Below, one piece after another: positions 15,694-53,972 of a stretch of 64,000 nucleotides of DNA (position 1 is its first letter; each line of letters starts with the position of its first letter). The notes under the pieces are model-generated. The model was not told where the DNA came from, did no database searches, and saw nothing but the letters and a program-made list of their open reading frames with translations. Source of the DNA: Bacteroidota bacterium (GTDB lineage: Bacteria; Bacteroidota; Bacteroidia; Palsa-948); NCBI GenBank assembly GCA_003164895.1, contig PLUL01000039.1, positions 4,307-68,306 of the forward strand, read 5' to 3'. A program made the position numbers and the translations under genes.

Positions 15694-15718
15694 CCGAAAA
15701 TAATAATTTGAAATATTA

Positions 15719-29528: not shown

Positions 29529-30278
29529 ATGAATATTATAAATGCACCATGTGAAACTTGTGAAAGCAAAAATTGTTTCATTCAAAAATTGTCTCATGAA
29601 CAATTATCTTGTGTTGATTCGCAAAAACAAACGTTTAGTTTTTTTAGGAATCAAAATATTTTTTGGGAAAACGCAGCAGTGAATGGAGTTTATTTTATTA
29701 AAACAGGCAAAGTAAAAGTTTTTTCTATGGGAATAAATGACAGAGAAAAAATTGTACGTCTTGCTAGTGATGGGCATATTATTGGGCATAGAGGATATGG
29801 CGCAGAAAAATATCCGGTAAGTGCGGCAACACTTGATAAATCATTGGTTTGTTTTATTGACAATGCTACTCTTCATGAACTTTTCATGAATAATCCGGTT
29901 TTTAGTTATGCCATGATGATGTTTTATTCGCAGGAACTTAGAAAATCAGAACAGAGGGCAAAATATAATTCTCAAATGTCAAGCAGAGAAAGAATCATTA
30001 GTGCTCTTTTATATGCAAAAGAAACATTTGGATATTCTGATACGGAAGCATTTCCACCTACTATAAATGTGCATTTATCACGAGCCGAAATCGCAAGTCT
30101 TTCTGATACAACGAAAGAAGAAGTTTCCCGATCGCTCACAGTTTTAGAAAGAGATAATCTCATTATGAAAACAGGAAGGAGTATTCAGATCCTCAACGAA
30201 AAACAACTTCTGCATTTAATTAAAGATTACGGCATATATATGGTGGATGAAGAAAAAAAACAATTGAATCCGCTTTAG
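29529..30278 (+). CDS. Crp/Fnr family transcriptional regulator with N-terminal cysteine cluster (FNR-like)
   Basis: N-terminal cysteines at C8, C11, C16, C28, plus a conserved VCFID cysteine. It has a cNMP-binding-type beta-roll and a C-terminal HTH whose recognition helix TKEEVSRSL carries the E-x-x-S-R motif of E. coli FNR. Confidence 0.8.
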   Translation: MNIINAPCETCESKNCFIQKLSHEQLSCVDSQKQTFSFFRNQNIFWENAAVNGVYFIKTGKVKVFSMGINDREKIVRLASDGHIIGHRGYGAEKYPVSAATLDKSLVCFIDNATLHELFMNNPVFSYAMMMFYSQELRKSEQRAKYNSQMSSRERIISALLYAKETFGYSDTEAFPPTINVHLSRAEIASLSDTTKEEVSRSLTVLERDNLIMKTGRSIQILNEKQLLHLIKDYGIYMVDEEKKQLNPL

Positions 30279-30482: not shown

Positions 30483-30498
30483 AGTGATTTAAATCACT
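30483..30498. promoter_or_regulatory. Perfect 16-bp palindrome AGTGATTTAAATCACT (FNR/CRP-type TGAT-N4-ATCA box)
   Basis: Perfect inverted repeat in the 460-bp leader, 241 nt upstream of the ATG at 30739. Confidence 0.5.
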
Positions 30499-30738: not shown

Positions 30739-31161
30739 ATGCGATTCAAAATTAAATTTCATCATTTGCTTCTTATGGGAGCTTTGATGTTCGGTTCTTG
30801 TCAAAAAGAATATGTAACACCTAAGCCATCTACACCACCACCACCACCCGGATCAATAAAATTTTCAGCAGATATTGTTCCAATCTTCATAACAAACTGT
30901 GGGAAATCAGGATGCCATGATGCTACTACTGATAAGGCAGGATTGAATTTATCTACTGCTGCTACAGCATATGAAGATCTTTTCGACAATAGTGAAATTG
31001 ATACAACAAATTTACCGAGCAGTGCTGCAACCAGTAATTTGTATATAAGAATGACGAGTACTAATACTCCTATGCCACCTCTTTCAGCAGGAGGCAAATT
31101 ATCGTCAACCGAAACAGATAAAGTTTTAGCATGGATAAAGGCAGGAGCAAAAAATAATTAA
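30739..31161 (+). CDS. Lipoprotein with planctomycete-cytochrome-c-like (PSCyt-type) domain carrying CX4CH instead of CXXCH
   Basis: Lipobox LMFGSC. IVPIFITNCGKSGCHD...LNLST...MPP...L...ETDKVLAWIKAGAKNN follows the PSCyt1-like pattern, but four residues separate the cysteines. Paralogue at 43194-43595. Confidence 0.55.
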   Translation: MRFKIKFHHLLLMGALMFGSCQKEYVTPKPSTPPPPPGSIKFSADIVPIFITNCGKSGCHDATTDKAGLNLSTAATAYEDLFDNSEIDTTNLPSSAATSNLYIRMTSTNTPMPPLSAGGKLSSTETDKVLAWIKAGAKNN

Positions 31162-31194
31162 ATAAATAAAAGAAACGATAAAAAACTAAAATAT

Positions 31195-32103
31195 ATGAAA
31201 TCAAAAATATTTCTTCTAATTCCTCTGCTTTGGGCAGGAGCAGCCATAGCGCAGGACAGCACCGGTACGGAAAAGCCAGCGAAAAAAAATCTGCCGGTGA
31301 AAAATGCATTTGAAAGCAACTGGATTATGAATAATCAAAGCATGGTTGTTCCTTTTGCAAATACACTTGAGTTTGACATTAACCATCGTTTTGGCACGGT
31401 TGAAAAGGGTGACGATATGCTCGGCATGTATGAACCTGCGAATATTCGTTTGGGAGTAACTTATACTCCGATGAAGAACCTACAAATAGGAGGAGGGATT
31501 ACGAAAGAATCAATGATGAATGATTTAAACCTTAAATGGAATATATTACAGCAAACTCGCTCAGGTAGTTTTCCGGTTTTTATTACTTATTACGGAAATG
31601 TAGTGGTTAACGGGACAAGAAACGGAGTTAATTGGTCTATCAAAGGTGTTGATGGAAAAGACAGTATTGTAAATGAAAAATTTCCTAATGATGCCAGCCG
31701 TTTTTCTTATTTCAATCAGTTAATTATTGGAAGAAAATTTTGTGACTGGCTTTCTGTACAGGTAGCCGTTTCCTATGCTCATTATAATTTAATTGATACC
31801 ACAAATGGAAATCCTCACGATAGGAAGAATGATAATCTGGCAATAAGTATAGCCGGACGCGTTAAAACTACAGCAACAATGTCTGTTCTCTTTGCTTACG
31901 ATATGCCATTGAATCCGGCAACAGGAGTAAAACCAAATTTAGCATTGGGAGTTGAGTGGTCAACCGGCTCTCATGCATTTCAAATATTTCTTTCGCCATA
32001 CACATCCATCATCAATCAGCAAGATATGGTCTACAATACCAATGATTTCACAAAGAAACAAGTTGCCATCTGTTTTAATATTTCAAGACTTTGGAATTTT
32101 TAA
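31195..32103 (+). CDS. Outer-membrane beta-barrel protein (HRFG-motif family)
   Basis: Signal peptide, motif LEFDINHRFG, alternating beta-strand pattern, C-terminal NISRLWNF (terminal Phe). Paralogue at 43621-44535 (FEFTIQHRFG, ...ITKRWNYF). Confidence 0.6.
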   Translation: MKSKIFLLIPLLWAGAAIAQDSTGTEKPAKKNLPVKNAFESNWIMNNQSMVVPFANTLEFDINHRFGTVEKGDDMLGMYEPANIRLGVTYTPMKNLQIGGGITKESMMNDLNLKWNILQQTRSGSFPVFITYYGNVVVNGTRNGVNWSIKGVDGKDSIVNEKFPNDASRFSYFNQLIIGRKFCDWLSVQVAVSYAHYNLIDTTNGNPHDRKNDNLAISIAGRVKTTATMSVLFAYDMPLNPATGVKPNLALGVEWSTGSHAFQIFLSPYTSIINQQDMVYNTNDFTKKQVAICFNISRLWNF

Positions 32104-32164
32104 TTAAAAAAATAAATAGAAAATAAAATTTAAAACACAAACCGCCTCTTTAAAAAATAACCCT

Positions 32165-32992
32165 ATGAAAAAATCAATTACCCTAACATTAGCAGGCATC
32201 GTTGCCATTGGAGCTATGTCGTTCGACATTTTAACGAGCAATGGAAAAGCAGGAAAGACCGGTGCATATACTGAAGGCAATTGCACAAGTTGCCACAGTG
32301 ATTATGCTGTCAATTCAGGACCTGGATCCATTGCGATTACATCCACTCCGTCACTTACAAACGGTTATGTTGCCGGAACTACTTATACAGTAAATGTAAC
32401 AGTAGCACAGTCAGGAGTTTCTCTTTTTGGATTTGATTTTGAAGCCTTAACAAATGCAACTACCAATGGAGGAACGCTTGCCGTTGTTTGTACTGATACT
32501 AAAACCTTAGCTTCATCAAGTCGGACTGATGTTGTTCACACAGGAACCGGTAATGCTACCGCAGATTCACATACATTTTCTTTTGTGTGGACCGCACCCA
32601 CCACTGGTACTAGCACCGTTACTTTCTATGCATCTGGAAATGCCGCTGATGGAGATGGATCAACAAGTGGTGACTATATATATACAACATCATTACCCAT
32701 TTCTAATGTTACCAGTGTAGAAGAAAACGTTGAAGCAAACTTTAACCTCTCAGTTTTTCCAAATCCGGTTTCTGATAATGTTAATGTTAAATTTACTTTA
32801 ATGGAAACATCTGATATTACCATTGATCTGATGGACATTAACGGGAACAAAATTGCCAATATTATTTCTGAAAACGGAATGAAAGGCGACATCAACAAAA
32901 CCTTTAATGTTTCTTCTTATTCCAAAGGAGTTTATTTTCTGCAAATAAAAAATGAGAAAGCATCATCTATTAAAAAATTAATTATTAAATAA
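32165..32992 (+). CDS. T9SS-sorted protein with N-terminal CXXCH-containing Reeler/DOMON-like beta-sandwich domain
   Basis: Signal peptide, GNCTSCHSDY (CXXCH) at the start of the mature domain, FSFVWTAPTTGTSTVTFYASGNAADGDG (Reeler-like pattern), and T9SS tail VFPNPVSDNVNVKF...GVYFLQIKNEKASSIKKLIIK. Confidence 0.6.
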   Translation: MKKSITLTLAGIVAIGAMSFDILTSNGKAGKTGAYTEGNCTSCHSDYAVNSGPGSIAITSTPSLTNGYVAGTTYTVNVTVAQSGVSLFGFDFEALTNATTNGGTLAVVCTDTKTLASSSRTDVVHTGTGNATADSHTFSFVWTAPTTGTSTVTFYASGNAADGDGSTSGDYIYTTSLPISNVTSVEENVEANFNLSVFPNPVSDNVNVKFTLMETSDITIDLMDINGNKIANIISENGMKGDINKTFNVSSYSKGVYFLQIKNEKASSIKKLIIK

Positions 32993-33061
32993 TATTTATT
33001 TGGCGCATGAAATCACTTCGGATATCAGAAAAAAAATATCTGAAATAAAATTGAAAAGTTT

Positions 33062-33970
33062 ATGGAAGGGAACGACAATAACAACGATCGCAGGAATTTT
33101 TTGAAGGCAGGATTGCTAACAGGCGGTTCATTATTAGCCGCATCTGCATTGCAATCTGTTTTTTCATCTGAAAAAGATTCCGGTGAAAAAGTAAAAGTGC
33201 TTACCACCGATGGGAAATTGGTGGAAGTGGATTCTACTCACATCAAGAAAGCTCAACCTTGTTGTGTCAATTCCAAGGAATCGCGTGTTGGAATTCCTGA
33301 TAAAAAATTTGTGATGGTAATTGATATGTCTCGTTGTAAAGATGCACTCAAATGTCAGAAGTCATGCGCTAAGCATCATGCATTACCCGAAGATGTGAAA
33401 TGGCTAAAGGTTTTAAAAATGCAGGAGTCGGAAGAAACTGCTCCATACTGGATGCCGAAACCATGTTTTCATTGCGATCATCCGCCTTGCGTGAAAGTTT
33501 GTCCGGTTGATGCAACTTATAAAAGGAGTGATGGAATCGTGTTGATAGATAATGAGCGTTGTATTGGTTGCAGATTTTGCATGGCAGCTTGTCCGTATTC
33601 CGCAAGATCATTTAATTGGGGAGAACCAAAAATCCCTACTGATGCAAATTATTCTCCCGAAACAAGTGTGCCAAGAAAAAAAGGAACAGTTGAGAAATGT
33701 GATTTCTGTCCTGATATGTTAAGGCAAGGAAAACTTCCGCATTGTGTTTCAGCTTGTCCGAATGGTGTATATTATTTTGGTGATTTGAATGAAGATACGG
33801 TTACCAATGGTGATGAAACACTTAGGTTTAGTCAGCTTATTAAGGATAAAGCAGGTTACAGAGAATTGGAATCACTCGGTACAGAACCGAGCGTTTATTA
33901 TTTGCCAGCTGCAAATCGAATTTTTCCTTTTAAAGATAGAGTGGAAAATAAAGAGGAACATCAACATTAA
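33062..33970 (+). CDS. Tat-exported 4Fe-4S ferredoxin-type subunit (NrfC/PsrB/ActB2-like), module 1
   Basis: Twin-arginine motif DRRNFLKAGLL. Cluster motifs CFHCDHPPCVKVCP, CIGCRFCMAACP and CDFCPDMLRQGKLPHCVSACP are present. The first cluster motif is atypical (CKDALKCQKSC). Confidence 0.8.
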   Translation: MEGNDNNNDRRNFLKAGLLTGGSLLAASALQSVFSSEKDSGEKVKVLTTDGKLVEVDSTHIKKAQPCCVNSKESRVGIPDKKFVMVIDMSRCKDALKCQKSCAKHHALPEDVKWLKVLKMQESEETAPYWMPKPCFHCDHPPCVKVCPVDATYKRSDGIVLIDNERCIGCRFCMAACPYSARSFNWGEPKIPTDANYSPETSVPRKKGTVEKCDFCPDMLRQGKLPHCVSACPNGVYYFGDLNEDTVTNGDETLRFSQLIKDKAGYRELESLGTEPSVYYLPAANRIFPFKDRVENKEEHQH

Positions 33971-34032
33971 TTTATGCAATTTATTTTTCAAAAAAAATTA
34001 AAGAGTGATTTGAATAAATAATTTTTCAATTT

Positions 34033-35403
34033 ATGGAAGACATCGTAAAACCGGCAAATGACGCAGAAGCAATTAAAATGTTGCACCAATTTAATGAGGA
34101 TTTATTGCCAAAAAAATTTGGTAAGATTGGTGTAACATGGGTGCTTTTTCTTTGCGTTATCATTATTAATGGATTATTTTTTTACGTCAAACAATTAAGA
34201 AATGGATTAAGTGTAACCGGAATGGGCGACATTGTTTCATGGGGAATTTATATATCCAATTTTGTTTTTTTTGTAGCAATAAGTTTGGTCGGTTCATTAA
34301 TTACTGCCGTACTTTACCTTTTAAATGTAAACTGGCGCTCACCGCTTACACGGATTGCAGAAATTATTGCAGTCGCAGCCATCGTTTTTGCCGGTCTTAT
34401 TATTATAGTAGATATGGGGCGACCGGATCGAATTCTGAACATGTTTATTTATGGAAGAATTCAATCGCCAATAGTTTGGGATGTGATAGTTGTAATGACT
34501 TATATGACGATAAGTCTTTTACTTCTATATTTTCCGTTGCTTCCTGGAATTGCTTTTTGCAGAGACCGTCTTCCTGGTATTCCAAAATGGCAGAAATGGA
34601 TGTACAAATTCTTATCATTTGGATGGCAATGGAAACCGGAACAATTCAAAATTGTGAAAAGAGCTATTGCAATTTTATCGGTACTAATTATTCCGGTTGC
34701 GTTTAGCATTCACACCGTTACTTCGTGGTTATTTGCTACTACATATCGTCCGGGCTGGGACAGCAGCATTTTCGGTCCTTACTTTGTAGCCGGTGCATTT
34801 ATGGTGGGAGCTGGTGGAGTTATTGCTGCCATGTACGTTCTTGTAAGATTTTTTCCGCGCTACGACAAGTATATCACCGATAAACATTTTGACCGCATGG
34901 GAATTTTACTTGCGTTGCTCTCCATGGTTTATTTATACTTTAATATAAATGAATACATGGTTCCCGGTTATAAAATGAAAGGTGAAGATGCACAATACCT
35001 CACAGAATTATTTGTAGGAAAATTTGCGATGATGTTTTGGTCAGTTCAGGTTTTTGGAATGATAATTCCCATTATTCTTCTTTTGTTCAAAAAATTCAGA
35101 CGCCCTTTTCCGATTTTTATTATTTCGATTTGTGTGATTGTCGGAGCATGGTTCAAACGTTTTCTGATTGTCATTCCTACTTTACTTCATCCCTTTCTTC
35201 CAATTCAGGAGGTTCCCGAAAAATTTAAAGTATACATACCCACTCTTGCGGAATGGTCAATCACTCTTGCCTCATTGGCTGGAGCGTTATTAATCATCAC
35301 AGTTTTTATTCGTTATTTTCCAATTATTTCTATTTGGGAAGTGGCTGAAGAAAGAGGAATAGGACATGATGTAATTTATAAACATTTAAACGAAAAAGAA
35401 TGA
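34033..35403 (+). CDS. NrfD/PsrC/ActC-like polytopic quinone-interacting membrane subunit, module 1
   Basis: 456 aa with ~10 hydrophobic helices. Family-like segments include VSWGIYISNFVFFVAISLVGSLI, DMGRPDR and GPYFVAGAF. It lies directly after the FeS gene, the classic NrfC-NrfD order. Confidence 0.75.
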   Translation: MEDIVKPANDAEAIKMLHQFNEDLLPKKFGKIGVTWVLFLCVIIINGLFFYVKQLRNGLSVTGMGDIVSWGIYISNFVFFVAISLVGSLITAVLYLLNVNWRSPLTRIAEIIAVAAIVFAGLIIIVDMGRPDRILNMFIYGRIQSPIVWDVIVVMTYMTISLLLLYFPLLPGIAFCRDRLPGIPKWQKWMYKFLSFGWQWKPEQFKIVKRAIAILSVLIIPVAFSIHTVTSWLFATTYRPGWDSSIFGPYFVAGAFMVGAGGVIAAMYVLVRFFPRYDKYITDKHFDRMGILLALLSMVYLYFNINEYMVPGYKMKGEDAQYLTELFVGKFAMMFWSVQVFGMIIPIILLLFKKFRRPFPIFIISICVIVGAWFKRFLIVIPTLLHPFLPIQEVPEKFKVYIPTLAEWSITLASLAGALLIITVFIRYFPIISIWEVAEERGIGHDVIYKHLNEKE

Positions 35404-36347
35404 AAAATAAAATATCATCTCAGAGGCGGATACTTTCACACATTTATTCATTAGTGATTTTGCTATTAATAAATGGATTTGTTCTCGTTGGAAATAAGGC
35501 AATGTGTCAGGGCAAACAGGAAGGTGCAGAAAAAAAATCCATTTCCATCTCTCTAAGCTGTAAAACTTCCGATGGATTAAAACAAGTTAAAGTAAAAGCT
35601 ACTCGCAGAGAGAATAAAAAAAGTATTCCGCTAGATAATGCAAAATCTCCTATCGCATTATATTTTGATAAAGTTGGAGATAAAGATCCATCAAATGGAA
35701 CTGGACTTATTGGTAAACTTTATTTGAATGATGATGGAGAAGTGAATTTTGATCTTCCAGATAATTTTAATTCACAAACATCTGGGTTACATCAATTCAA
35801 ATTTATTGTCAAGTTGGAATCAGATCCATTGTATGAAGATGCTCAAGAAGAAATTTCTATTTCAGATGCAAAAATCAATATTGATTATTTCGGAAAGGAT
35901 TCTATCAAGACAGCAACAGCAACATTAACCGAATGGAAAGATACTGCGTATGTTCCTGTTTCAGGAGTAGAAATGAAACTATCCATCAAAAGAGCATTCA
36001 GTCTGTTTTCCTTTGGCGGTGAAGGACTTACTACGGATAAAAGCGGAAATGTATCTGCTGATCTTCCTTTGGATATTCCCGGAGAACCAGGTGGAAAAAT
36101 TACAATTGTTGCAAGTGTGATTGACAACGATACTTATGGTTCGCTTGAAAGTACAAAGAAAGTAGAGTGGAGTGTTCTTCCCAAAACAAACGAAGAAATT
36201 GGACGAACACTTTGGTCAAGAGGAAATAACGCGCCAATTTCATTAGTCATTATTTCTTGTTCCATCATTGCGGTAATCTGGGGAATACTGATTTATCTTG
36301 TTTTCCAGTTATTTAAAATAAAAAAAATAAGTAAACAACAAGCGTAA
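35400..36347 (+). CDS. Uncharacterised periplasmic beta-rich protein with C-terminal membrane anchor, module 1
   Basis: ATGA start/stop overlap with the NrfD-like gene (35400-35403). It has an N-terminal hydrophobic leader and ~250 aa without Cys/His cofactor motifs. A C-terminal TM (ISLVIISCSIIAVIWGILIYLVFQLF) is followed by a basic tail. Paralogue at 40219-41094. Confidence 0.6.
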   Translation: MKNKISSQRRILSHIYSLVILLLINGFVLVGNKAMCQGKQEGAEKKSISISLSCKTSDGLKQVKVKATRRENKKSIPLDNAKSPIALYFDKVGDKDPSNGTGLIGKLYLNDDGEVNFDLPDNFNSQTSGLHQFKFIVKLESDPLYEDAQEEISISDAKINIDYFGKDSIKTATATLTEWKDTAYVPVSGVEMKLSIKRAFSLFSFGGEGLTTDKSGNVSADLPLDIPGEPGGKITIVASVIDNDTYGSLESTKKVEWSVLPKTNEEIGRTLWSRGNNAPISLVIISCSIIAVIWGILIYLVFQLFKIKKISKQQA

Positions 36348-36401
36348 AATAAAACACAAACCAAAAATCAATACTAACACTAAAAACCAAGGAGGCAATT
36401 T

Positions 36402-36854
36402 ATGAAATCAAATCCAAAACAACCAACTTTTGCAGCAGTTACAACGGTAATCATGCTGTTTGTATTTGTAGGAATGCTCAGTATGTCATTCATGAATAAT
36501 TCTCAGGATGATAAAAAGAAAAAACCATGGGTAGTACTGGAAAAATCGAAAGCAATGAAAAACCCTGTGAAAGCGGACGCTACTTCACTATCGAAAGGAA
36601 AAGAATTATATACTAAACATTGTAAATCGTGCCATGGATCCGCAGGAAAAGGCGACGGACCTAAAGCAAAAGAATTAGATACTCCAACCGGTGATTTTAC
36701 TGACAAATCATTTCAGGCGCAGACTGAAGGAGAGATTTTTTACAAAGCTAAAGAGGGTAGAGATGATATGCCAAGCTTCAAGAAAAAACTTCCGGAAGAC
36801 GAAGATATTTGGACGATCGTTAATTATGTGCGTTCATTATCAGGAGCGAAATAG
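36402..36854 (+). CDS. Membrane-anchored class I monohaem cytochrome c, module 1
   Basis: N-terminal TM segment, CKSCHG haem motif, distal Met region GRDDMPSF, conserved C-terminal WTIVNYVRSL. Confidence 0.8.
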   Translation: MKSNPKQPTFAAVTTVIMLFVFVGMLSMSFMNNSQDDKKKKPWVVLEKSKAMKNPVKADATSLSKGKELYTKHCKSCHGSAGKGDGPKAKELDTPTGDFTDKSFQAQTEGEIFYKAKEGRDDMPSFKKKLPEDEDIWTIVNYVRSLSGAK

Positions 36855-36878: not shown

Positions 36879-36914
36879 AACAGGGAAAAGAATATCAAAA
36901 ATCTTTTCCCTGTT
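36879..36914 (+). terminator. Intrinsic terminator after module 1
   Basis: AACAGGGAAAAGA (36879-36891) pairs with TCTTTTCCCTGTT (36902-36914) as a 13-bp perfect stem, followed by AATTTATGT. Confidence 0.6.
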
Positions 36915-36935: not shown

Positions 36936-37424
36936 ATGCAACTTGAAAAAGAAATACACCAGGTCAAGCCATTCAGGAACGACTATCATAAAGCGTCTGT
37001 AAATATTGTTTATACAGGAAAATGGATGATGCAGTTTCATGCAGATATATTAAAACCCTACGGCTTAACAATTCAGCAATATAATATTCTACGAATCTTA
37101 CGAGGTCAATATCCAAATGCCACAACGGTAAAACTTATTCGTGAACGGATGCTCGATCGTATGAGCGATGCATCTCGAATCGTTGAACTCCTCCGAAAAA
37201 AAGGATTAGTTGAGAGAACTATTTGCGCAGGAGACAGAAGAAGGATGGATGTCGTAATCACTCAACTTGGTATTTATCGGTTGATTGAAATTGAAAATGA
37301 AAACGAGCGTATGGATAAACGTCTCTTTAGTTTAGATGATCAAGAAATTATTCAACTGAATACACTTCTTGATAAAATCAGGAATATTCCTGATATTTTG
37401 CCTTCTGTTGTACCTTCATTATAG
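36936..37424 (+). CDS. MarR family transcriptional regulator
   Basis: 162 aa winged-helix pattern: LTIQQYNILRILRG...RMLDRMSDASRIVELLRKKGLVER...DRRRMDVVIT. Paralogue at 48569-49030. Confidence 0.8.
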   Translation: MQLEKEIHQVKPFRNDYHKASVNIVYTGKWMMQFHADILKPYGLTIQQYNILRILRGQYPNATTVKLIRERMLDRMSDASRIVELLRKKGLVERTICAGDRRRMDVVITQLGIYRLIEIENENERMDKRLFSLDDQEIIQLNTLLDKIRNIPDILPSVVPSL

Positions 37425-37704: not shown

Positions 37705-38700
37705 ATGATAGACCAAAATGAACAAAATGGAAACGGCTCAGGAGCTGAATCTAAGGCAACAGGCAGACGAAACTTCCTTAAGTTCGGTGCTTTAGCAGCA
37801 GGACTTACTGTAGTGGGTGGTGGACTACAGAAAGTTTTGTCTCAAGATAAAAAGGAAAACCCAGATACCACCGTGTTCACACGAGATGGAAAGGTTTTCA
37901 AAGCCGACAAAGCATGTTTGCATGAATACACTGCTCCGCCGGTAACAAATGCCGAAGCCCGCATAGGTATTCCCGGTAAAAAATTTACTATGGTGTTTGA
38001 TCTTGCAAAGTGCGATGGTTGTAAAAAATGTACTGAATCCTGTCAGGCAATGCACTTTACTGAATCCGACCGTGAATGGATAAAAGTGTATAAGATGAAG
38101 GATGCTGAAACAACCGCTTCCTATTATATGCCCAAACCTTGTATGCATTGCGACAATCCTCCTTGCACAAAAGTTTGTCCGGTTGGAGCAACTTTCAAAA
38201 GAGAAGATGGTATTGTTCTAATTGATGATGATAGATGCATAGGTTGTCGTTCTTGCATGGCTGCATGTCCTTACTCTGCACGTTTTTTCAATTGGTCAGA
38301 TCCAATGCAACCTGTAGCTGTTGCTAATATCCCTTATTCCCCAGAACATGGATTTCCACGCCAAAGAGGAACGACTGAAAAATGTGATTTCTGTCCACAC
38401 ATGATTCGTGAAGGGAAAATGCCCGCTTGTGTATCTGGATGTCCAATGCAAGCAATTTATTTTGGCGATCAGAATGAAGATGCTGTAACAAATTCAGCCG
38501 GGGTTACTGTAAAATTCAGCCAGCTTTTAGAAGATAATAGTGCTTATCGATTATTGGAAGAATTAGGAACAGAGCCACGTGTATATTATTTGCCTCCTAA
38601 AAACAGGAAATATCCTAAGCCAGATATGGAATCTATAGGAAAGGAAAATAAGATTGAAGGCGGAAAATCTGATACAGGAATGGGAAATATGGCTATGTAA
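37705..38700 (+). CDS. Tat-exported 4Fe-4S ferredoxin-type subunit (NrfC/PsrB/ActB2-like), module 2
   Basis: Twin-arginine motif GRRNFLKFGAL and four complete cluster motifs: CDGCKKCTESC, CMHCDNPPCTKVCP, CIGCRSCMAACP, CDFCPHMIREGKMPACVSGCP. Confidence 0.85.
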   Translation: MIDQNEQNGNGSGAESKATGRRNFLKFGALAAGLTVVGGGLQKVLSQDKKENPDTTVFTRDGKVFKADKACLHEYTAPPVTNAEARIGIPGKKFTMVFDLAKCDGCKKCTESCQAMHFTESDREWIKVYKMKDAETTASYYMPKPCMHCDNPPCTKVCPVGATFKREDGIVLIDDDRCIGCRSCMAACPYSARFFNWSDPMQPVAVANIPYSPEHGFPRQRGTTEKCDFCPHMIREGKMPACVSGCPMQAIYFGDQNEDAVTNSAGVTVKFSQLLEDNSAYRLLEELGTEPRVYYLPPKNRKYPKPDMESIGKENKIEGGKSDTGMGNMAM

Positions 38701-38748
38701 AAATGACAAAACAAAAAATTAATCATAAGAAAATTAAATAAAAAAAAT

Positions 38749-40188
38749 ATGAGCAAAATAATTTATCCAGACAGTCATATTCCGGCAGAACTTTCAGAAG
38801 AAGTTATCCGCGAAGACAGCATGCGCCCAACTATGAAATGGGGACGAAGCACTCAACTTTGGCTTGGCTTTTTATTTATGGTTTTTGGTTGGGGACTTTA
38901 TGCATATATACATCAATTAAGACATGGACTGGGAGAAACAGCCATGCGTAATTATGTTTCCTGGGGATTATACATTTCCACTTTTGTATTTTTCATCGGC
39001 ATCAGCCATTCCGGCACACTTGTTTCAGCGATTCTTAGAATCACAAAACAAGACTGGAGAATGCCGATCACACGAATTGCAGAGTTGATGACTTTTGTAT
39101 CTCTTTGTTTTGGCGGTCTTATGCCTATTATTGATTTAGGTCGTGCAGATCGCATTGCAAACCTTGTCATTTTCGGAAGAGTACAATCACCACTCATGTG
39201 GGATGTGATGTCAATCGTAACTTATTTTACAGGAAGCACAATCTTCTTATGGCTTCCTATGATACCAGACATGGGACTGATGAGAGACAGATTAACAGTA
39301 GTTGATACTCCGTTCAAAAAATTCAAAAAGTGGCTTTACAAAACATTGGCGATTGGTTGGACAGGTTCAAAATCTCAGTGGAAACGCTTGGAGTTAGTGA
39401 TGACAATTATGACAATCATTATTATTCCTGTAGCAGTTTCTGTTCATACAGTTGTAAGTTACATTTTCGCGATGACACTTCGCCCTGGATGGAACAGTAC
39501 TATATTTGGTCCGTACTTTGTGGCTGGTGCATTGTACAGCGGTTCGGCAGTAGTAATTCTTGCCATGGTTATTTTCCGAAAACTTTATCATCTTGAAAAA
39601 TATATCACCTATAGACATTTTGATCTGATGGGTCGAGTGGTATTGTCGCTGACACTTATATATGGATATCTGAACCTGAATGAATATTGGATTCCTGCCT
39701 ATAAAATGGCAACTTCAGAAGGCCATTTGTTACACGATTTATTTAGTGGAAGTTATTCTACCGCTTTTTGGTTATGCCAGTTCGGAACAGTACTTTTTCC
39801 AATTGTTGTAATGTGTTTTCCAAAAGGACGAACACCGGGAGCGCTTACTGTCGTTTGTATATTTATAGCAATTGGAGCTTGGGTAAAACGTTATCTCATT
39901 GTGGTTCCTACACTATTGCATCCTTTTTTACCAATACAAGATGTTCCATTGACTTGGTCGCAATATTTTCCTAATTGGGTTGAATGGTCAGTTACGATGG
40001 CAGCATTTTCAGGAATGGTAATCATTGTAACTCTTTATGCGAAATTTTTTCCAATGATGTCAATGTGGGAAGTTGTGCACGGAGCTCACATAGAAGAAAG
40101 TAAAAGGGTTGCATTTGAAAAAGTTGAGCATGCAGAAGAAATAAATGAAGCAAAAACAAATCATAAAAAAGCAACAGTAGTTGGATAA
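38749..40188 (+). CDS. NrfD/PsrC/ActC-like polytopic membrane subunit, module 2
   Basis: 479 aa, clear paralogue of 34033-35403 (VSWGLYISTFVFFIGISHSGTLV, DLGRADR, GPYFVAGALY). Confidence 0.78.
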   Translation: MSKIIYPDSHIPAELSEEVIREDSMRPTMKWGRSTQLWLGFLFMVFGWGLYAYIHQLRHGLGETAMRNYVSWGLYISTFVFFIGISHSGTLVSAILRITKQDWRMPITRIAELMTFVSLCFGGLMPIIDLGRADRIANLVIFGRVQSPLMWDVMSIVTYFTGSTIFLWLPMIPDMGLMRDRLTVVDTPFKKFKKWLYKTLAIGWTGSKSQWKRLELVMTIMTIIIIPVAVSVHTVVSYIFAMTLRPGWNSTIFGPYFVAGALYSGSAVVILAMVIFRKLYHLEKYITYRHFDLMGRVVLSLTLIYGYLNLNEYWIPAYKMATSEGHLLHDLFSGSYSTAFWLCQFGTVLFPIVVMCFPKGRTPGALTVVCIFIAIGAWVKRYLIVVPTLLHPFLPIQDVPLTWSQYFPNWVEWSVTMAAFSGMVIIVTLYAKFFPMMSMWEVVHGAHIEESKRVAFEKVEHAEEINEAKTNHKKATVVG

Positions 40189-40218
40189 TGCAAAATAATA
40201 AATAGAAATATAACAACA

Positions 40219-41094
40219 ATGAACAATATGAAAATAACCAGAATTACATTAGCAGCAGTTCTTTTCTGCGGAGTTTCATTTGCGCAAGCTCAAAAAGCAG
40301 AAAGCAGTCTTCAATTATCATTTTCTAAGCAAACTGATAATAGTAAAACTATAAGCGCATTAGTGATGGGAAAAAAGAGTGGCGAAAAATTTAAGCCCGC
40401 ATCAAATGCTCACATCAGTTTTTATGCACAGAAAGAAAAAGAATTAGTTCTTCTTTCAAAAACGGTATCCGATGATCGTGGCAAAGCAACATTAACTCTT
40501 CCTAAAGATTTACCATTGGATGCAGATCATTTTTTCGGTATAACTGTAAAAGTTGAAAACGATGATACGTTTGAAAACTCAGAAGAAAAATTAAAATTAA
40601 AGGATGTAAATCTTTCTCTTAAACTTAATCCGCATGACACAGCGAGAGTCGCAACTGCAACTGTTACTGAAATTACCGATGAAGGAACTGAGAAAGCAGT
40701 AAAAGATGTTTCGATTAATTTTTATGTGCAGCGCTTATTTGGAAAAATGCCAGCAGCAGAAGATCACACGGTTAAAACAGATGAAAAGGGTATAGCAGTT
40801 TTTTCTTTTCCTAAAGGAATTCCTGGTGATACTGCTGGAAGTATGACAGTACTTGCTATGATTGAGGATAACGATTCGTATGGAACAGTGGAAAGTAAAA
40901 GTTCCACCAATTGGGGAGTTGTTGTGCCTCTCGAAAAAGATCCGTTTCCTCGAGCTATTTGGGGAGCAAAAGCACAATGGGGAATGATAATCACGCTTAC
41001 AATTCTTTATGGTGGAGTATGGTCGTCATACATCTTCATGGCTTTTCAATTAAGAAAAATAAAAAAAGAAGAAAATTTAACAACCAATAATTAA
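40219..41094 (+). CDS. Uncharacterised periplasmic beta-rich protein with C-terminal membrane anchor, module 2
   Basis: Signal peptide ending AQA, no cofactor motifs. Blocks shared with 35400-36347 include ATATVTEITDEG vs ATATLTEWKD, GIPGDTAGSMTVLAMIEDNDSYGTVES vs IPGEPGGKITIVASVIDNDTYGSLES. C-terminal TM plus basic tail. Confidence 0.6.
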   Translation: MNNMKITRITLAAVLFCGVSFAQAQKAESSLQLSFSKQTDNSKTISALVMGKKSGEKFKPASNAHISFYAQKEKELVLLSKTVSDDRGKATLTLPKDLPLDADHFFGITVKVENDDTFENSEEKLKLKDVNLSLKLNPHDTARVATATVTEITDEGTEKAVKDVSINFYVQRLFGKMPAAEDHTVKTDEKGIAVFSFPKGIPGDTAGSMTVLAMIEDNDSYGTVESKSSTNWGVVVPLEKDPFPRAIWGAKAQWGMIITLTILYGGVWSSYIFMAFQLRKIKKEENLTTNN

Positions 41095-41119
41095 TCACTA
41101 ATACTTAAAAATAAACACA

Positions 41120-41590
41120 ATGAAAACTATTATCACACAAGTAAGCAAAATGAAACTTTCAGGTTTCATTTTAATTGGAGCACTTGCAATTTGCAGTGCG
41201 TTTATTCCAAAGCCAAAGGGAGAAGTAATTAATTTAGTTGGTGGACAGGAAAAATGGGTTGCACCGGCAGATGCTGATAAGAAAACCAATCCGAATGCTT
41301 CTGATCCCAAAAGTCTTGCTACAGGTAAAGACATTTTTATTCAAAAATGTGCTATTTGCCATGGTAAAAAAGGAAAAGGTGATGGACCAAAGAGCGCAGA
41401 ATTAGACAAACCAGTGCCAGATTTTACAAAAGGCGATTTCAGCAAACAAAGCGATGGTGCGATCTTCTGGAAAATTGCCGAAGGAAGAAAACCAATGCCT
41501 TCTTTCAAAAGTGAACTTTCTGAAGTGCAACGCTGGCAGGTAATAATTTATTTAAGAGAACTTGGAAAGACCACTACTTCACAAAAATAA
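41120..41590 (+). CDS. Class I monohaem cytochrome c, module 2
   Basis: CAICHGKKGKGDG, GRKPMPSF, WQVIIYLREL; same family as 36402, 46539 and 53531. Confidence 0.8.
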   Translation: MKTIITQVSKMKLSGFILIGALAICSAFIPKPKGEVINLVGGQEKWVAPADADKKTNPNASDPKSLATGKDIFIQKCAICHGKKGKGDGPKSAELDKPVPDFTKGDFSKQSDGAIFWKIAEGRKPMPSFKSELSEVQRWQVIIYLRELGKTTTSQK

Positions 41591-41659
41591 AAGAAAATAA
41601 TAATAACAACTATTTACCTATACCAACAAATCAATTAACCAATTAATAATACAATTAAC

Positions 41660-43120
41660 ATGAAAAATTTAAACAAAAAATTAGTGTCTGCCTTTATGAT
41701 GGGGGCATTCATTGTACTGGGGTTGTCGAATTGCAAAAAAAAGGATGAGGTACTTGACTTACCACCCGCACCCGCACCAACACCAGTATTAAATACTGAT
41801 ACTTTGTATTCAGTTCCTGGAACTGCCACACTTCAAGCAATAGGCGGAGCTGCGTGGGATGGTACAATTGAAGGAGTTTGGAATAATGCACCTGCATTAA
41901 ATGTAACCGGTACAGTGCCAGATTTAGGAAATGGAACTTTTACAGGATATGTTGGTAACAGTACTCAAATTAAATTACGTTCCTTATACGATGCGAGCAA
42001 TATTTATTTTCTTTTTGAATTTGCTGCTGACCGTCCGAACGTGCTAAGTGCACAATGGTATTTTAATCCAACAACACATCTTTGGGCGCAGGAAGCTACC
42101 GCTGCCAGTTTAACTAATTTGAATCCTGATGGAAGTTACAGACCTCCTTTTTCACAGGATGAAATTGTAATGATGTTTAATATTTCAGATGCAACATTTA
42201 ATACATTATCTTGTTATGCTGCTTGCCATGTCATGTCTTCGTATGGATATTCAGTTACACCTTCAGGCGGATACATGGCTACAAATGGTCCTAGTGAAAG
42301 ATTAGATGTGTGGAGAATGCGCACGTTTCAGACTATGCCTATGAACCAAGTAAATGACTGTTTTATTGATGATGGTTCAAGCATTGGATTAGGAGAAAGT
42401 GGTGTGTTAGATAAAAATATGGTTCACAGCGATTGGCAGGTAAATAATGGTCCGGCATCTTCTGTACCTCCAAGCTTACAATCACCTGGAGTAGTGGTAT
42501 CAGCACCTACTGCAACATCAAAAGTTTATGCAGCAGATGGAGGATTCAGCAATAAGCAAACATTAAAACTAAGCGGAGGATCAAATCCGGCGAATGCATT
42601 CCCTGCTGCTAATGGAGGAAAAGTATCGGTTCCAATTTGGGTAATAGAAGGTGCTGCCGGAACTAATCCATATAGCAGTAAACAAGGTGCAATCTTTACT
42701 TCAGATACCGGTGCAACAGCAGTTATGGTTATAGGAGTTGATTCTACTACAGGAATTTTACATCTAAAAGATGGAAATACTTTAGATCCTCGAACTTCAA
42801 CATCAGGTACTGCTTATCAGCAAGTAGGAACCGGAGATGGACCAAATTGTATTCCTGGTTCTATTGTTAGTGTATATACCGGTAGTCGTGGTGATGTAAC
42901 ATGTAATGGATTTTGGACAGGATCAGGTTGGAGATTCTTATTCAAACGTGCATTGAAAACAAGTGATAATGTTAATGACGTTGATTTCTCTTCTCTTGGC
43001 AATCAGCCATTTGGTGTTGGCGTAATGTTTAACGGCGCTGATAACGAACATGCTATTGTAGCTGGCTTGACATTGCATTTTGGTCAAAGAGGAAGTGCTC
43101 GTATTAAAAAAACAAAATAA
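41660..43120 (+). CDS. Lipoprotein with ethylbenzene-dehydrogenase-like (EB_dh, DOMON superfamily) haem-binding-type domain
   Basis: Lipobox GLSNC. Segments fit my recollection of the EB_dh family pattern: WNNAPALNV...IKLRSLYDASNIYFLFEF, LDVWRMR, GWRFLFKRALKTSDNVNDVDF, GVGVMFNGADNEH. It contains CYAACH (CX3CH). Confidence 0.5.
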   Translation: MKNLNKKLVSAFMMGAFIVLGLSNCKKKDEVLDLPPAPAPTPVLNTDTLYSVPGTATLQAIGGAAWDGTIEGVWNNAPALNVTGTVPDLGNGTFTGYVGNSTQIKLRSLYDASNIYFLFEFAADRPNVLSAQWYFNPTTHLWAQEATAASLTNLNPDGSYRPPFSQDEIVMMFNISDATFNTLSCYAACHVMSSYGYSVTPSGGYMATNGPSERLDVWRMRTFQTMPMNQVNDCFIDDGSSIGLGESGVLDKNMVHSDWQVNNGPASSVPPSLQSPGVVVSAPTATSKVYAADGGFSNKQTLKLSGGSNPANAFPAANGGKVSVPIWVIEGAAGTNPYSSKQGAIFTSDTGATAVMVIGVDSTTGILHLKDGNTLDPRTSTSGTAYQQVGTGDGPNCIPGSIVSVYTGSRGDVTCNGFWTGSGWRFLFKRALKTSDNVNDVDFSSLGNQPFGVGVMFNGADNEHAIVAGLTLHFGQRGSARIKKTK

Positions 43121-43126
43121 GTTAAT

Positions 43127-43158
43127 GGGTACTGGGATAAATTTTTATCCCAGTACCC
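43127..43158 (+). terminator. Strong hairpin after the EB_dh-like gene (possible terminator or processing site)
   Basis: GGGTACTGGGATA pairs with TATCCCAGTACCC as a 13-bp perfect stem, 7 nt after the stop. No T-tract follows on the plus strand, so a terminator function is uncertain. Confidence 0.4.
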
Positions 43159-43193
43159 AAAACCAAAAACGATTAACAATTAAAATACTCATC

Positions 43194-43595
43194 ATGAAAA
43201 AAGCACTAATATTTATGACTGCAGTGGGCATGTTGTTAATTGCTGTTGTAACAGGTTGTCAAAAAAACGCAACATTTATTTACAAAGCCCCGACAGTTGT
43301 AGTTACTACTCCGGTTTCTTTTAGTAAAAATCTGGTTCCACTTTTTACTGCAAATTGTGCTCTGAGCGGTTGTCATGTATCAGGAGGTCAGACTCCGAAT
43401 TTAACGGCAGCTTCAGCATACGCATCGTTATCAGGCGGCAATTTTTTTAATGTTAGCAATCCGTCAAGCAGCATAATATACGAGCGATTAACAGGAACAC
43501 TTACTCCGGAAATGCCTTTTGGAAAACCCAATAACCCATCCAACATTAATGCTCTGGTATTGGCGTGGATTACACAAGGAGCAAAGAACAATTAG
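43194..43595 (+). CDS. PSCyt-like lipoprotein with CX4CH motif (paralogue of 30739-31161)
   Basis: Start taken at ATG 43194 (MKKALIFMTAVGMLLIAVVTGC, lipobox). Also LVPLFTANCALSGCHVSGGQTPNL...PEMPFG...ALVLAWITQGAKNN. The longer ORF-track start overlaps the upstream gene. Confidence 0.55.
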   Translation: MKKALIFMTAVGMLLIAVVTGCQKNATFIYKAPTVVVTTPVSFSKNLVPLFTANCALSGCHVSGGQTPNLTAASAYASLSGGNFFNVSNPSSSIIYERLTGTLTPEMPFGKPNNPSNINALVLAWITQGAKNN

Positions 43596-43620
43596 GAAAA
43601 AACAATTAAAAAATAATAAA

Positions 43621-44535
43621 ATGAAAAAAAATATAAAACAATTTGCAATCTGGATGCAAATAGGAATAGTTGCCTATTTGCTATTTGCAATTGGTAATAA
43701 TGTCTGCGCACAGGATAGCACCTCAGCTAAATCTGTAGCTAAGATAGAAAGAGTAAGAAATACTTTTCTTGGCAATATGCTTATTGATAATCAAACGGTG
43801 ATGGTGCCAGTTAAAAAAACTTTTGAGTTTACTATTCAGCACCGCTTTGGAACTATCAATAACGGTTATACAGATATGTACGGACTATTTGCCACTGCCA
43901 ACATGCGCTTGGGATGGAATTATACTCCTATTGATAATTTGCAATTAGGTGTTGGAATATGCAAGGAAAATATGCAGTGGGATGGCAGTGTTAAATATGC
44001 AATTACCAAACAAGCTGTATCTCACGGTTGTCCGGTAAGCGTTACTTATTTTGGAGATATGGCGGTGTCAACTCTTCCGCTGAAAGGAAATTTTGCAAAT
44101 GATGCCGACAGAATTTCGTATTTCAATCAATTAATTGTAGCTAGAAAAGTTACAAGTCATTTTTCAGTTCAGGTGTCACCAAGTTTATCTTATTATAATA
44201 ATGTGGCAGGATATATGAGTGCCGAAGGAACTGTTAAACCAACAATGAATAATGCTCAGCTTTCTGTTGCTACAATGGGTTGTTATATGATTACCGGTGG
44301 AATGGGTATTATTGTTGACTACGATCAGCCGCTTACTCAAAACCCAACTAATAATCCATGTCCCAACGTAAGTTTTGGAATTCAGTTTGCAACCATTACT
44401 CACACATTTCAGGTATTTCTTGGAAACTTCCAAGGTATTCTTCAGCAGTCAAATAATTTCTTTAACCAAAATGATTATACACAAAGCAGATATTTAATAG
44501 GATTTAATATTACTAAACGTTGGAATTATTTTTAA
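43621..44535 (+). CDS. Outer-membrane beta-barrel protein (HRFG-motif family), second copy
   Basis: Start taken at ATG 43621 (MKKNIKQFAIWMQIGIVAYLLFAIGNNVCAQ). Also FEFTIQHRFG, RISYFNQLIVARK and C-terminal FNITKRWNYF. Confidence 0.6.
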   Translation: MKKNIKQFAIWMQIGIVAYLLFAIGNNVCAQDSTSAKSVAKIERVRNTFLGNMLIDNQTVMVPVKKTFEFTIQHRFGTINNGYTDMYGLFATANMRLGWNYTPIDNLQLGVGICKENMQWDGSVKYAITKQAVSHGCPVSVTYFGDMAVSTLPLKGNFANDADRISYFNQLIVARKVTSHFSVQVSPSLSYYNNVAGYMSAEGTVKPTMNNAQLSVATMGCYMITGGMGIIVDYDQPLTQNPTNNPCPNVSFGIQFATITHTFQVFLGNFQGILQQSNNFFNQNDYTQSRYLIGFNITKRWNYF

Positions 44536-46538: not shown

Positions 46539-46961
46539 ATGAAAAAATTTAAAATCCGTAAAGCATCAATGTTGGCAGGCATAGCAACTGTTGTCATCGC
46601 TCTATCATTGGCATTTCAGCAAAACAAAGAATGGAAAGCGCCAGATTCGGCAAAAGACAAAAAGAATCCCATCACTTCGGATGATGCTTCAATTGCTGCC
46701 GGTAAAAAAATTTATGAAAAAGATTGTATTAACTGTCATGGAAAAAAAGGTAAAGGTGATGGCAAGGACGCAGCAAATCAAGATGTAACAGTTGCTGATT
46801 TAACTTCATCCAAAGTTCAATCTCAAACCGACGGAGAAATTTTTTGGAAAGTCAGCGAAGGAAGAAAGCCAATGCCATCAAATAAAAAAGATCATTCTGA
46901 TGAACAACTTTGGCAAACAGTGAATTACCTGCGCACACTTGGTAAGTCAGTAAAAAAGTAA
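46539..46961 (+). CDS. Class I monohaem cytochrome c
   Basis: Signal/anchor peptide, CINCHGKKGKGDG, GRKPMPSN, WQTVNYLRTL. Confidence 0.8.
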   Translation: MKKFKIRKASMLAGIATVVIALSLAFQQNKEWKAPDSAKDKKNPITSDDASIAAGKKIYEKDCINCHGKKGKGDGKDAANQDVTVADLTSSKVQSQTDGEIFWKVSEGRKPMPSNKKDHSDEQLWQTVNYLRTLGKSVKK

Positions 46962-46986
46962 ATAATGGTACAAAAATAAATACAAG

Positions 46987-48204: not shown

Positions 48205-48217
48205 AAAATTTATAACG

Positions 48218-48493: not shown

Positions 48494-48568
48494 TTGTGAA
48501 AATTTTTAAAGCACTTAATAATAGAATGAGAGAAATGAATAAAGATAATAGTCGTCAGCTAATTGTTT

Positions 48569-53956: not shown

Positions 53957-53972
53957 TTATCTAACTATAAAT

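Follow-up and report, generated by a model that had tools for sequence, protein, structure and literature searches.

An NrfC/NrfD-type redox module forms the inner-membrane half of a seven-gene cluster conserved in Bacteroidota

Dimers of an iron-sulfur (FeS) protein of the NrfC type and a membrane protein of the NrfD type are a standard building block of respiratory chains. They form part of alternative complex III (ACIII), which follows a quinol-to-cytochrome c logic, of the DsrMKJOP complex, in which the DsrOP dimer talks to a periplasmic c-type cytochrome, and of the Nrf, Psr and Qrc systems of the complex iron-sulfur molybdoenzyme (CISM) superfamily. Within the NrfD superfamily, ActC, ActF and DsrP make up group C (PMC8076601), and NrfCD pairs that lack a molybdopterin subunit and serve periplasmic cytochromes have been proposed earlier, e.g. 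in Melioribacter (PMC3534657). Here we describe a module of this kind in a stretch of 64,000 nucleotides (nt) from a Bacteroidota bacterium (assembly GCA_003164895.1, contig PLUL01000039.1, positions 4,307 to 68,306), the whole of which we call the window. Four of its genes (module 1; Table 1) encode an FeS subunit, an NrfD-like membrane subunit, an immunoglobulin (Ig)-like protein that spans the membrane once, and a monohaem cytochrome c; a paralogous system, module 2, follows on the same strand. The clade to which module 1 belongs bears generic annotation only (NCBI names the relatives of its membrane subunit 'NrfD/PsrC family molybdoenzyme membrane anchor subunit') and is not listed in a review of the NrfD family (PMC8076601).

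Together with three outer-membrane genes, module 1 makes up a conserved Bacteroidota cluster of seven genes at positions 30739-36854 of the window, of which it is the inner-membrane half. Relatives of the four-gene unit were found in at least 594 species genomes by a pattern scan of one genome per species, and the best 80 carriers are all Bacteroidota, the carrier groups being Chitinophagaceae, Saprospiraceae, Cytophagales and Sphingobacteriales. Over 89 related loci (given L numbers where one has to be singled out) a near-universal order was found: X - CX4CH lipoprotein - DUF5777 barrel - (cytochrome c) - FeS - NrfD - Ig-like - (cytochrome c), where X is a YceI-like, an EB_dh-like or a choice-of-anchor-V protein. 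Among the 40 loci with at least 6 kilobases (kb) of flank on each side, from which components were counted, the Ig-like protein and the cytochrome c were each present in 39, the CX4CH and DUF5777 genes together in 37, and any X gene likewise in 37. The three outer-membrane genes sit 5' or 3' of the module depending on the genome, a rearrangement that has kept the linkage. In the window they lie on the same strand directly 5' of the core (30739-32992), with gaps of 33, 61 and 69 nt, the last being the largest gap in the operon from 30739 onwards. An earlier sequence-only reading had recognized the four genes and had begun the module at 33062; the four genes stand, the start does not, and the transcription unit most likely begins at 30739. 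Searches of the published literature (DUF5777; YceI, EB_dh and NrfD together; DsrOP in Bacteroidetes; NrfD in Chitinophagaceae) found nothing on this cluster, and gave no description of the clade, its Ig-like subunit or the links to DUF5777, CX4CH and X proteins.

For the four-gene core, open reading frame (ORF) coordinates and sequence agree with the intergenic spacing first given (62, -4 and 54 nt), including an ATGA overlap of the NrfD-like and Ig-like genes that is seen in the sequence at 35400-35403, and motif and profile matches bear out the first labels of FeS protein with a twin-arginine translocation (Tat) signal, NrfD-like protein and monohaem cytochrome c. The hairpin that follows the unit (centroid -17.6 kcal/mol, z = -4.25) had been called a strong terminator, which is borne out in part: its stem is perfect, but the tail after it, AAUUUAUG, is a weak U-run. 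An identical copy of the NrfD-like protein occurs on 13 contigs, and the four places shown, which come from different samples, share one gene order; because of this recurrence and the relatives in at least 594 species genomes, module 1 is real, neither chance nor an assembly artefact.

The membrane subunit ties the module most closely to ACIII. It matches the Pfam NrfD family (PF03916) at 130.2 bits against a cut-off of 25.8, has about 9-10 hydrophobic segments and no cofactor motif, and aligns end to end with Flavobacterium johnsoniae ActC (6btm_C, a subunit with ten transmembrane helices; E = 2.3e-53). Four solved ActC chains, including those of Roseiflexus and Rhodothermus, match its full length with E from 1e-46 to 2e-53, supporting the earlier remark that the protein is ActC/ActF-sized. 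A family profile built from nine members matched ActC over its full length (E = 7e-75, 240-256 bits) and ActF more distantly (E = 8e-11, 45 bits), and gave no match to PsrC even at E = 10. The only NCBIfam models matched by the subunit were DsrP, QrcD and HybB, of which DsrP was the best (141.8 bits, and 113.9 for module 2, against 58 for F. johnsoniae ActC and a cut-off of 350). Triangulation by hidden Markov models and bit scores thus places the family within the ActC/ActF/DsrP group, in neither named branch. With the quinol-site residues of Rhodothermus marinus ActC taken from PMC8076601, Ser164 and Asp169 map to Ser145 and Asp150, both invariant in the family; His139 maps to Asp127, likewise invariant and in the DsrP/QrcD state; and Asp253 maps to Leu233, which is not conserved. 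This mapping of Ser145, Asp150 and Asp127 onto the ActC site makes a quinone site in the subunit plausible. Among the relatives, P0112 (571 amino acids, aa) fuses Fer4_11 and NrfD domains in one polypeptide, and the NrfD proteins P0036 (776 aa) and P0105 (739 aa) are long enough to hold the Ig-like partner; such fusions would favour a physical complex.

The FeS subunit carries a Tat motif (RRNFLK), a Fer4_11 domain (78.7 bits) and four Cys groups at residues 92, 135, 167 and 213. Its closest solved relatives are PsrB (2vpw_B, 1.4e-29) and ArrB, the C-terminal domain of ActB being more distant, and its best NCBIfam model is DsrO (200.6 bits for module 1 and 191.6 for module 2, cut-off 200). The sequence-only reading had read group I rightly, as CKDALKCQKSC in module 1 and CDGCKKCTESC in module 2, and had judged the former degenerate. 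It is instead the rule: 92 of 95 relatives share the three-Cys form Cx2[A/L/V/E/T]x2Cx3C, and the canonical CxxCxxCxxxC was found in 3 of the 95, of the module-2 type only. The pattern Cx2(V/A/W)x2Cx3C is the classical [3Fe-4S] signature (FrdB, SdhB, NarH, DmsB mutants), and in NrfC/PsrB-type proteins the most membrane-distant cluster is ligated by the first three Cys of group I. Because group I is without its second Cys and group III is complete (CIGCRFCMAACP), a [3Fe-4S] cluster is probable at the membrane-distal site. At group III R. marinus ActB has CIGTRYC, which agrees with the membrane-proximal [3Fe-4S] seen in ACIII structures (PMC7439408) and with the proximal [3Fe-4S] inferred for Qrc (PMC6303296). 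The four-cluster wire of module 1 would thus probably end in a [3Fe-4S] of high potential on the side that receives the catalytic subunit in Psr-type enzymes, which would make a sensible exit to a c-type cytochrome and is clearly unlike ACIII. The two modules of the window may differ in the potential of this distal cluster, since group I of module 2 has four Cys.

The cytochrome c has one CKSCH motif and belongs to class I (Cytochrom_C, 51 bits, cut-off 21.3), with matches in the PDB to c552 (1.4e-20), ActE (1.3e-9) and CcoP-type domains. C74, C77, H78 and M123, the Met of a (D)MPSF motif, are invariant in its family, a CxxCH is present in 93 of 93 module cytochromes, and a single N-terminal hydrophobic segment serves as anchor or signal. 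The Ig-like protein had been labelled as unknown, and a search of Pfam, NCBIfam and PDB sequences indeed gave no relative. Its profile matches 1022 clusters at 50% identity in a search of 1.84 billion cluster representatives; the homologues are all annotated hypothetical, and the full-length entries among the 150 best clusters listed are all about 270-340 aa. The family alignment holds no conserved Cys, His or Met. An AlphaFold (AF2) model with a predicted local distance difference test (pLDDT) of 79.8 shows an N-terminal helix, either an anchor or a signal peptide and in most relatives the latter, with AxA-type sites, two tandem beta-sandwich domains, a C-terminal transmembrane helix and a basic tail, and Foldseek returned only Ig, macroglobulin and transglutaminase-barrel folds at low TM-scores. 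From this model we read the protein as a cofactor-less structural or docking subunit.

The outer-membrane genes add potential haem proteins and a barrel to this core. The small CX4CH lipoprotein is a putative monohaem cytochrome c of the periplasmic face of the outer membrane: the motif is kept in 60 of 62 orthologues, the lipobox Cys, C59, H60, W132, I133 and G136 are invariant, the last three within a C-terminal WI..GA helix, the PSCyt1 score is 21.4 bits against a cut-off of 22, and alignment of the family with the class I cytochrome c profile by hhalign, though weak (E = 5e-4), superimposes the haem motif and MPP/MPS. The DUF5777 protein is modelled by AF2 as a barrel of 14 strands (pLDDT 78.7, predicted template-modelling score 0.76), and its best Foldseek matches are OmpG, FapF, the COG4313 channel and TodX/FadL, with CymD also among the matches. 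Two His residues are invariant in this family, H64 in DIxHRFG and H260 in SHAFQIF, and the invariant polar residues include K114, Q120, K181, Q189 and N198; a bis-His haem b between H64 and H260 was dropped as an idea because the model puts one at the end of strand 1 and the other at the start of strand 13, on opposite membrane faces if the termini are periplasmic. The X protein of module 1 scores 99.8 bits for choice_anch_V and 62.3 bits for Por_Secre_tail (NCBIfam), the latter a C-terminal sorting domain of the type IX secretion system (T9SS), and is a putative cell-surface haem protein, as a CxxCH is found in three of four full-length choice-of-anchor-V orthologues, the fourth having CTCH. 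The EB_dh-like X proteins resemble the gamma subunit of ethylbenzene dehydrogenase, normally a haem b domain, and 19 of 21 contain CX3CH. In the EB_dh-like lipoprotein of module 2 and its orthologues (in L012-L080) this takes the form of a strongly conserved TCYASCH, which suggests a covalent haem in a DOMON-like fold.

Further loci bear on the outer-membrane half. A row of genes in L034 (13113-16720) encodes a ResB-like protein, a hexahaem lipoprotein in the slot that the CX4CH protein usually takes before DUF5777, and the DUF5777 barrel; a second hexahaem lipoprotein, 43% identical to it, lies in L026 and scores 34.8 bits on the MtrC/MtrF domain model. These lipoproteins strengthen a porin-cytochrome reading of the outer-membrane genes, which is also favoured by the paralogues of the module cytochrome that adjoin two other predicted outer-membrane barrels in the window.

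Compared with ACIII, the module shares more than the membrane subunit, of which ActC is the closest solved relative. ACIII likewise has a periplasmic Tat-exported FeS subunit, in which three [4Fe-4S] clusters are joined by a probable [3Fe-4S], and a monohaem class I cytochrome c, ActE. However, the pentahaem ActA, the molybdopterin-like ActB1 domain, the second NrfD-like protein ActF (there is one NrfD gene per module) and ActD are not present, and the module has the Ig-like subunit in their place. ActB, in which an N-terminal B1 domain is fused to the FeS domain, is about 950-1040 aa long, against 302 aa for the FeS subunit, which aligned only to ActB residues 859-992. The three-Cys motif lies in group I, binding the distal cluster, rather than in group III, which in ActB binds the proximal cluster next to the quinol site (PMC7439408), and His139 and Asp253 of ActC are Asp and Leu in the module. 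In L026 (1-8663) a full ACIII operon (ActA-F) stands directly 5' of the module together with the hexahaem lipoprotein, so that the two systems coexist, and the ActC of this locus is about 31% identical to the NrfD-like subunits of the window. The sequence-only description of module 1 as a stripped-down ACIII is therefore abandoned, given the missing ActB1 domain, ActA and ActF, the displaced three-Cys motif and the coexistence with ACIII.

DsrMKJOP provides the best NCBIfam models for both subunits, and DsrP likewise has an Asp at the proton-acceptor position of the quinone site. However, DsrO is borderline for module 1 and below its cut-off for module 2, and DsrP falls far under 350. DsrM, DsrK and DsrJ genes are not adjacent, the neighbours being those for the CX4CH lipoprotein, DUF5777, the T9SS protein, the Ig-like protein, cytochrome c and a MarR-family regulator; DsrJ is trihaem, whereas the module cytochrome is a class I monohaem protein, and the module hosts are not sulfur-metabolising lineages. 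The CISM pairs NrfCD, PsrBC and QrcCD share the Fer4_11 and NrfD domain families with the module, whose scores fall well under the respective thresholds (NrfC 131.5 against 377.6, QrcC 140.8 against 400, QrcD 60.6 against 570, TtrB 137.5 against 416), and its partner is a monohaem cytochrome, not NrfB/NrfA, PsrA or QrcA/B. NosGH was rejected as a comparator, being of the NapGH rather than the NrfCD type. The core would function as the electron-transfer dimers of ACIII, DsrOP, Nrf and Psr do. For the outer-membrane genes, the row of X, periplasm-side cytochrome and barrel parallels the logic of mtrC-mtrA-mtrB in MtrCAB and other porin-cytochrome complexes, and the small barrel with one haem is alike in concept to Cyc2. 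The likeness to MtrA, MtrB, MtrC and Cyc2 is one of gene logic rather than of sequence; in contrast to MtrCAB, the barrel of the module has only about 14 strands and the cytochromes are monohaem (CX4CH, CX3CH, CxxCH).

The absence of a catalytic partner noted in the sequence-only reading holds across the 89 related loci, where no molybdopterin or multihaem subunit is consistently linked. No molybdopterin or multihaem gene was found among the window genes scanned, and ORFs with at least three CxxCH motifs were absent from the operon and present in 2 of the 89 loci. When the ten closest large ORFs beside the module in other genomes were examined, nine proved to encode unrelated housekeeping proteins and one, in L088, a molybdopterin enzyme. 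That locus (9045-15976) is divergent: its NrfD protein is 56% identical, the Ig-like protein is lacking, a 300-aa cytochrome-domain protein and a dihaem protein are encoded, and the molybdopterin oxidoreductase gene lies 2.4 kb 3'. The further statement that the cytochrome c is the only redox partner is superseded, as the conserved cluster adds an outer-membrane barrel and one or two further proteins with haem motifs. Given an NrfC/NrfD-type dimer with an ActC-like subunit, a dedicated monohaem cytochrome and no linked catalytic subunit, the quinol:cytochrome c (or reverse) oxidoreductase activity proposed at first is kept as the most reasonable core activity of the four-gene module.

Upstream sequences suggest how the cluster is controlled. 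A Crp/Fnr-family gene 5' of the operon, whose best NCBIfam match is Fnr (65.6 bits, below the cut-off), encodes a candidate regulator. An FNR/CRP-type palindrome precedes the first operon gene, and a near-identical one, TGATATAAATCA, occupies the equivalent place before module 2 at 37464. FNR-type boxes number 7 in the window against 2.4 expected, and 20 of the 67 related loci have an exact TGAT-N4-ATCA within 450 nt 5' of the cluster against about 1 expected, an enrichment of about 20-fold. Expression is probably under Fnr-like regulators, and from the boxes we infer control by oxygen (or nitric oxide). Further TGAT-N4-ATCA boxes lie at 47226 and 49289, and two Crp/Fnr paralogues (45036-45761 and 45758-46477) share 44-52% identity with the first and with each other; each of the three has an N-terminal CxxCx4-5C, and together they flank the redox island. 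A scan for sigma-70-type promoters, a model uninformative for Bacteroidota, gave 51 sites against 65 expected, and no Rfam family matched anywhere in the window, so that the long leaders contain no known riboswitch.

Synteny, gene content, sequence homology, the conservation of motifs and the enrichment of upstream boxes, all observed directly, are best explained by a menaquinol:cytochrome c oxidoreductase under low-oxygen control that feeds an outer-membrane unit akin to a porin-cytochrome complex, a reading to which we give about even credence. The NrfD-family subunit would bind and oxidise menaquinol at a site on the periplasmic side, and electrons would enter the Tat-exported FeS subunit and pass through three [4Fe-4S] clusters to the distal, probably [3Fe-4S], cluster, and thence to the membrane-tethered class I cytochrome c. 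Held by its C-terminal helix, the Ig-like protein would have a docking or structural role. The cytochrome would relay electrons across the periplasm to the CX4CH haem lipoprotein, the 14-strand DUF5777 barrel and surface protein X, which in the module 1 operon would be the T9SS-anchored CxxCH protein, in an arrangement formally analogous to the surface cytochrome, periplasmic cytochrome and porin of mtrC-mtrA-mtrB. Occupancy of the cofactor sites, assembly into a physical complex, the electron path with its outward direction and the terminal substrate are all parts of this model that we infer. Several points weigh against it. It is not obvious how monohaem proteins at the two sides of a barrel could bridge the outer membrane; the cytochrome fold of the CX4CH family is thinly backed (a Pfam cytochrome match in 3 of 29 members, hhalign probability 31%); and the YceI-like protein, which is the X most often found (26 of the 40 loci), is devoid of a haem motif. 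Low potentials are possible for the [4Fe-4S] clusters that lie between menaquinol and an acceptor of high potential, and the cytochrome c could equally feed terminal oxidases. Many of the hosts are aerobic heterotrophs without known extracellular electron transfer. Finally, the export signal rule for surface lipoproteins, C-X-K-(D/E)2 (PMC5080379), is weakly enriched (EB_dh-like 4 of 15, YceI-like 19 of 31, CX4CH 9 of 59).

The point about terminal oxidases underlies the alternative in which the four-gene core is a stand-alone low-oxygen quinol:cytochrome c oxidoreductase, a substitute for ACIII whose cytochrome c would pass electrons to oxidases of the cbb3 or caa3 type or to reductases in the periplasm, and the outer-membrane genes would be neighbours that merely share its regulation. 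Monohaem class I cytochromes typically serve oxidases, and the ActC-like membrane subunit, the relation of the cytochrome to ActE and CcoP-type domains, the oxygen control suggested by the FNR-type boxes and the coexistence with ACIII, as might be expected of a paralogous system, all fit this explanation. We nevertheless consider it unlikely: the outer-membrane genes, on one side or the other in 37 of 40 loci, are hard to explain without functional coupling, each module of the window has its own outer-membrane set, and the cluster neighbours examined included no oxidase genes. A flow in the opposite direction, in which an extracellular or periplasmic donor such as Fe(II) or reduced humics would enter through the barrel and haem unit in the manner of a split Cyc2 and electrons would pass from cytochrome c to oxidases and, 'uphill' through the FeS and NrfD subunits, to the menaquinone pool, seems improbable. 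The small barrel and monohaem protein do resemble the fused cytochrome-porin Cyc2 (for its role see PMC6344600), the probable high-potential [3Fe-4S] lies at the cytochrome-facing end, and NrfD-type modules run either way, Qrc reducing menaquinone (PMC6303296). However, a class I cytochrome c could reduce menaquinone only in a strongly endergonic step, and no carbon-fixation genes were found among the window genes scanned. The carriers Niastella, Emticicia, Solitalea and Pinibacter are heterotrophs and are not known to oxidise iron.

The structural matches of DUF5777 raise a different explanation, that of redox processing in the periplasm: DUF5777 would be a FadL/COG4313-like channel for uptake of a small or hydrophobic compound, X (YceI- or EB_dh-like) would be the lipoprotein that binds this ligand, and the module and its cytochromes would reduce or oxidise it. 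YceI-family proteins bind lipids and polyisoprenoids, and the prevalence of YceI-like proteins as X and the hydrophobic-substrate channels TodX, FadL, CymD and COG4313 among the matches are in its favour. An enzyme-like catalytic subunit is, however, lacking from the cluster, motifs for haem attachment are present in the other X types, and in L034 it is a hexahaem cytochrome that replaces CX4CH beside DUF5777, which together make this explanation distinctly improbable. Least probable by far is that the dimer anchors, and transfers electrons for, a molybdopterin or multihaem catalytic subunit whose gene lies elsewhere in the genome. The NCBI name for the relatives, a MoaA gene in the window (58791-59801) and the molybdopterin oxidoreductase of L088 would suit such a role; against it stand the two loci out of 89 with multihaem ORFs, the housekeeping nature of nine of the ten nearest large ORFs, the atypical make-up of L088 and its missing Ig-like protein, and the distal three-Cys cluster and dedicated cytochrome c, which point to a cytochrome partner.

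Table 1. Positions in the window of the cluster, its regulatory elements and the paralogous module 2.
Feature	Coordinates	Strand	Remarks
Crp/Fnr-family regulator	29529-30278	+	N-terminal CETCESKNC; Pfam cNMP_binding, HTH_Crp_2
FNR/CRP-type palindrome	30485-30496		TGATTTAAATCA; about 250 nt 5' of first operon gene
CX4CH small lipoprotein (PSCyt1-like)	30739-31161	+	140 aa; lipobox FGSC
DUF5777 outer-membrane beta-barrel	31195-32103	+	Pfam DUF5777, 224.8 bits
Choice-of-anchor-V protein (X component)	32165-32992	+	CTSCH; T9SS C-terminal sorting domain
FeS subunit	33062-33970	+	302 aa
NrfD-like membrane subunit	34033-35403	+	456 aa
Ig-like bitopic protein	35400-36347	+	315 aa
Monohaem cytochrome c	36402-36854	+	150 aa
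Hairpin	36879-36914	+	perfect 13-bp stem 3' of cytochrome gene; likely operon end
Module 2, paralogous whole system	37705-44535	+	FeS, NrfD-like, Ig-like, cytochrome c, then outer-membrane genes
Module 2, four-gene core	37705-41590		
Module 2, EB_dh-like CX3CH lipoprotein	41660-43120		
Module 2, CX4CH lipoprotein	43194-43595		
Module 2, DUF5777 barrel	about 43618-44535		

Module 2 differs from module 1 in gene order, with its outer-membrane genes 3' of the core, and the counterparts are 54% (FeS), 43% (NrfD), 28% (Ig-like), 38% (cytochrome c), 38% (DUF5777) and 37% (CX4CH) identical. Two more pairs, each of a monohaem cytochrome c followed by a protein of about 410 aa, are found at 46539-48493 and 53531-55229. 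The cytochromes of these pairs are 35-51% identical to the module cytochrome, while the unannotated proteins of about 410 aa, which share 29% identity, a signal peptide and a C-terminal aromatic residue, are probably outer-membrane barrels. A small CRRCH lipoprotein (48218-48493) follows the first pair, and L058 and L089 also have cytochrome/barrel pairs of this sort close to the cluster. At 55947-57780 a fifth monohaem cytochrome c, a lipoprotein of 152 aa, precedes a protein of 441 aa that has N-terminal hydrophobic segments and matches no family. Two MarR-family regulators (36936-37424 and 48563-49030), 72% identical, each lie directly 3' of a cytochrome-containing unit, and the gene for MoaA, a protein of molybdenum cofactor biosynthesis, is at the edge of the redox island. 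Many genes for T9SS-sorted cargo (1740-13310, 49512-52346 and 60852-62222: S8 protease, PKD-repeat, SprB-repeat and GH25 lysozyme proteins) indicate a Bacteroidota host with an active T9SS, and SprB-repeat proteins also adjoin the cluster in L003, L005 and L013.

Together these analyses raise the tentative possibility, which we consider less than even, of an undescribed phylum-wide trans-envelope conduit in Bacteroidota that is almost all monohaem, consisting of an ActC/DsrP-like menaquinol dehydrogenase that has a distal [3Fe-4S] cluster and an Ig-like subunit, a cytochrome c as shuttle, and an outer-membrane unit in which the CX4CH haem lipoprotein and the 14-strand DUF5777 barrel are joined by an exchangeable surface module, the last being a T9SS-anchored haem protein, an EB_dh-like CX3CH lipoprotein or a YceI-like binder of lipids or quinones. 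The candidates noted earlier for extracellular electron transfer in Bacteroidota are secreted multihaem cytochromes (PMC11495043; PMC6344600), not this system. Three of the seven partner families are uncharacterised (the Ig-like protein, for which there is no Pfam model, the CX4CH lipoprotein and DUF5777, whose name stands for a domain of unknown function), and the carrier groups are abundant in soil, freshwater and wastewater. Cultivated carriers (Niastella vici, Emticicia sp., Solitalea agri, Pinibacter aurantiacus and Danxiaibacter flavus) make the conduit hypothesis directly testable. If it is true, several families of unknown function would acquire one, a widespread and simple form of extracellular electron exchange, possibly oxygen-regulated, would exist where only multihaem candidates have been discussed, and 'aerobic' soil and freshwater Bacteroidota would gain the ability to exchange electrons at low oxygen with extracellular iron, humics or partners.

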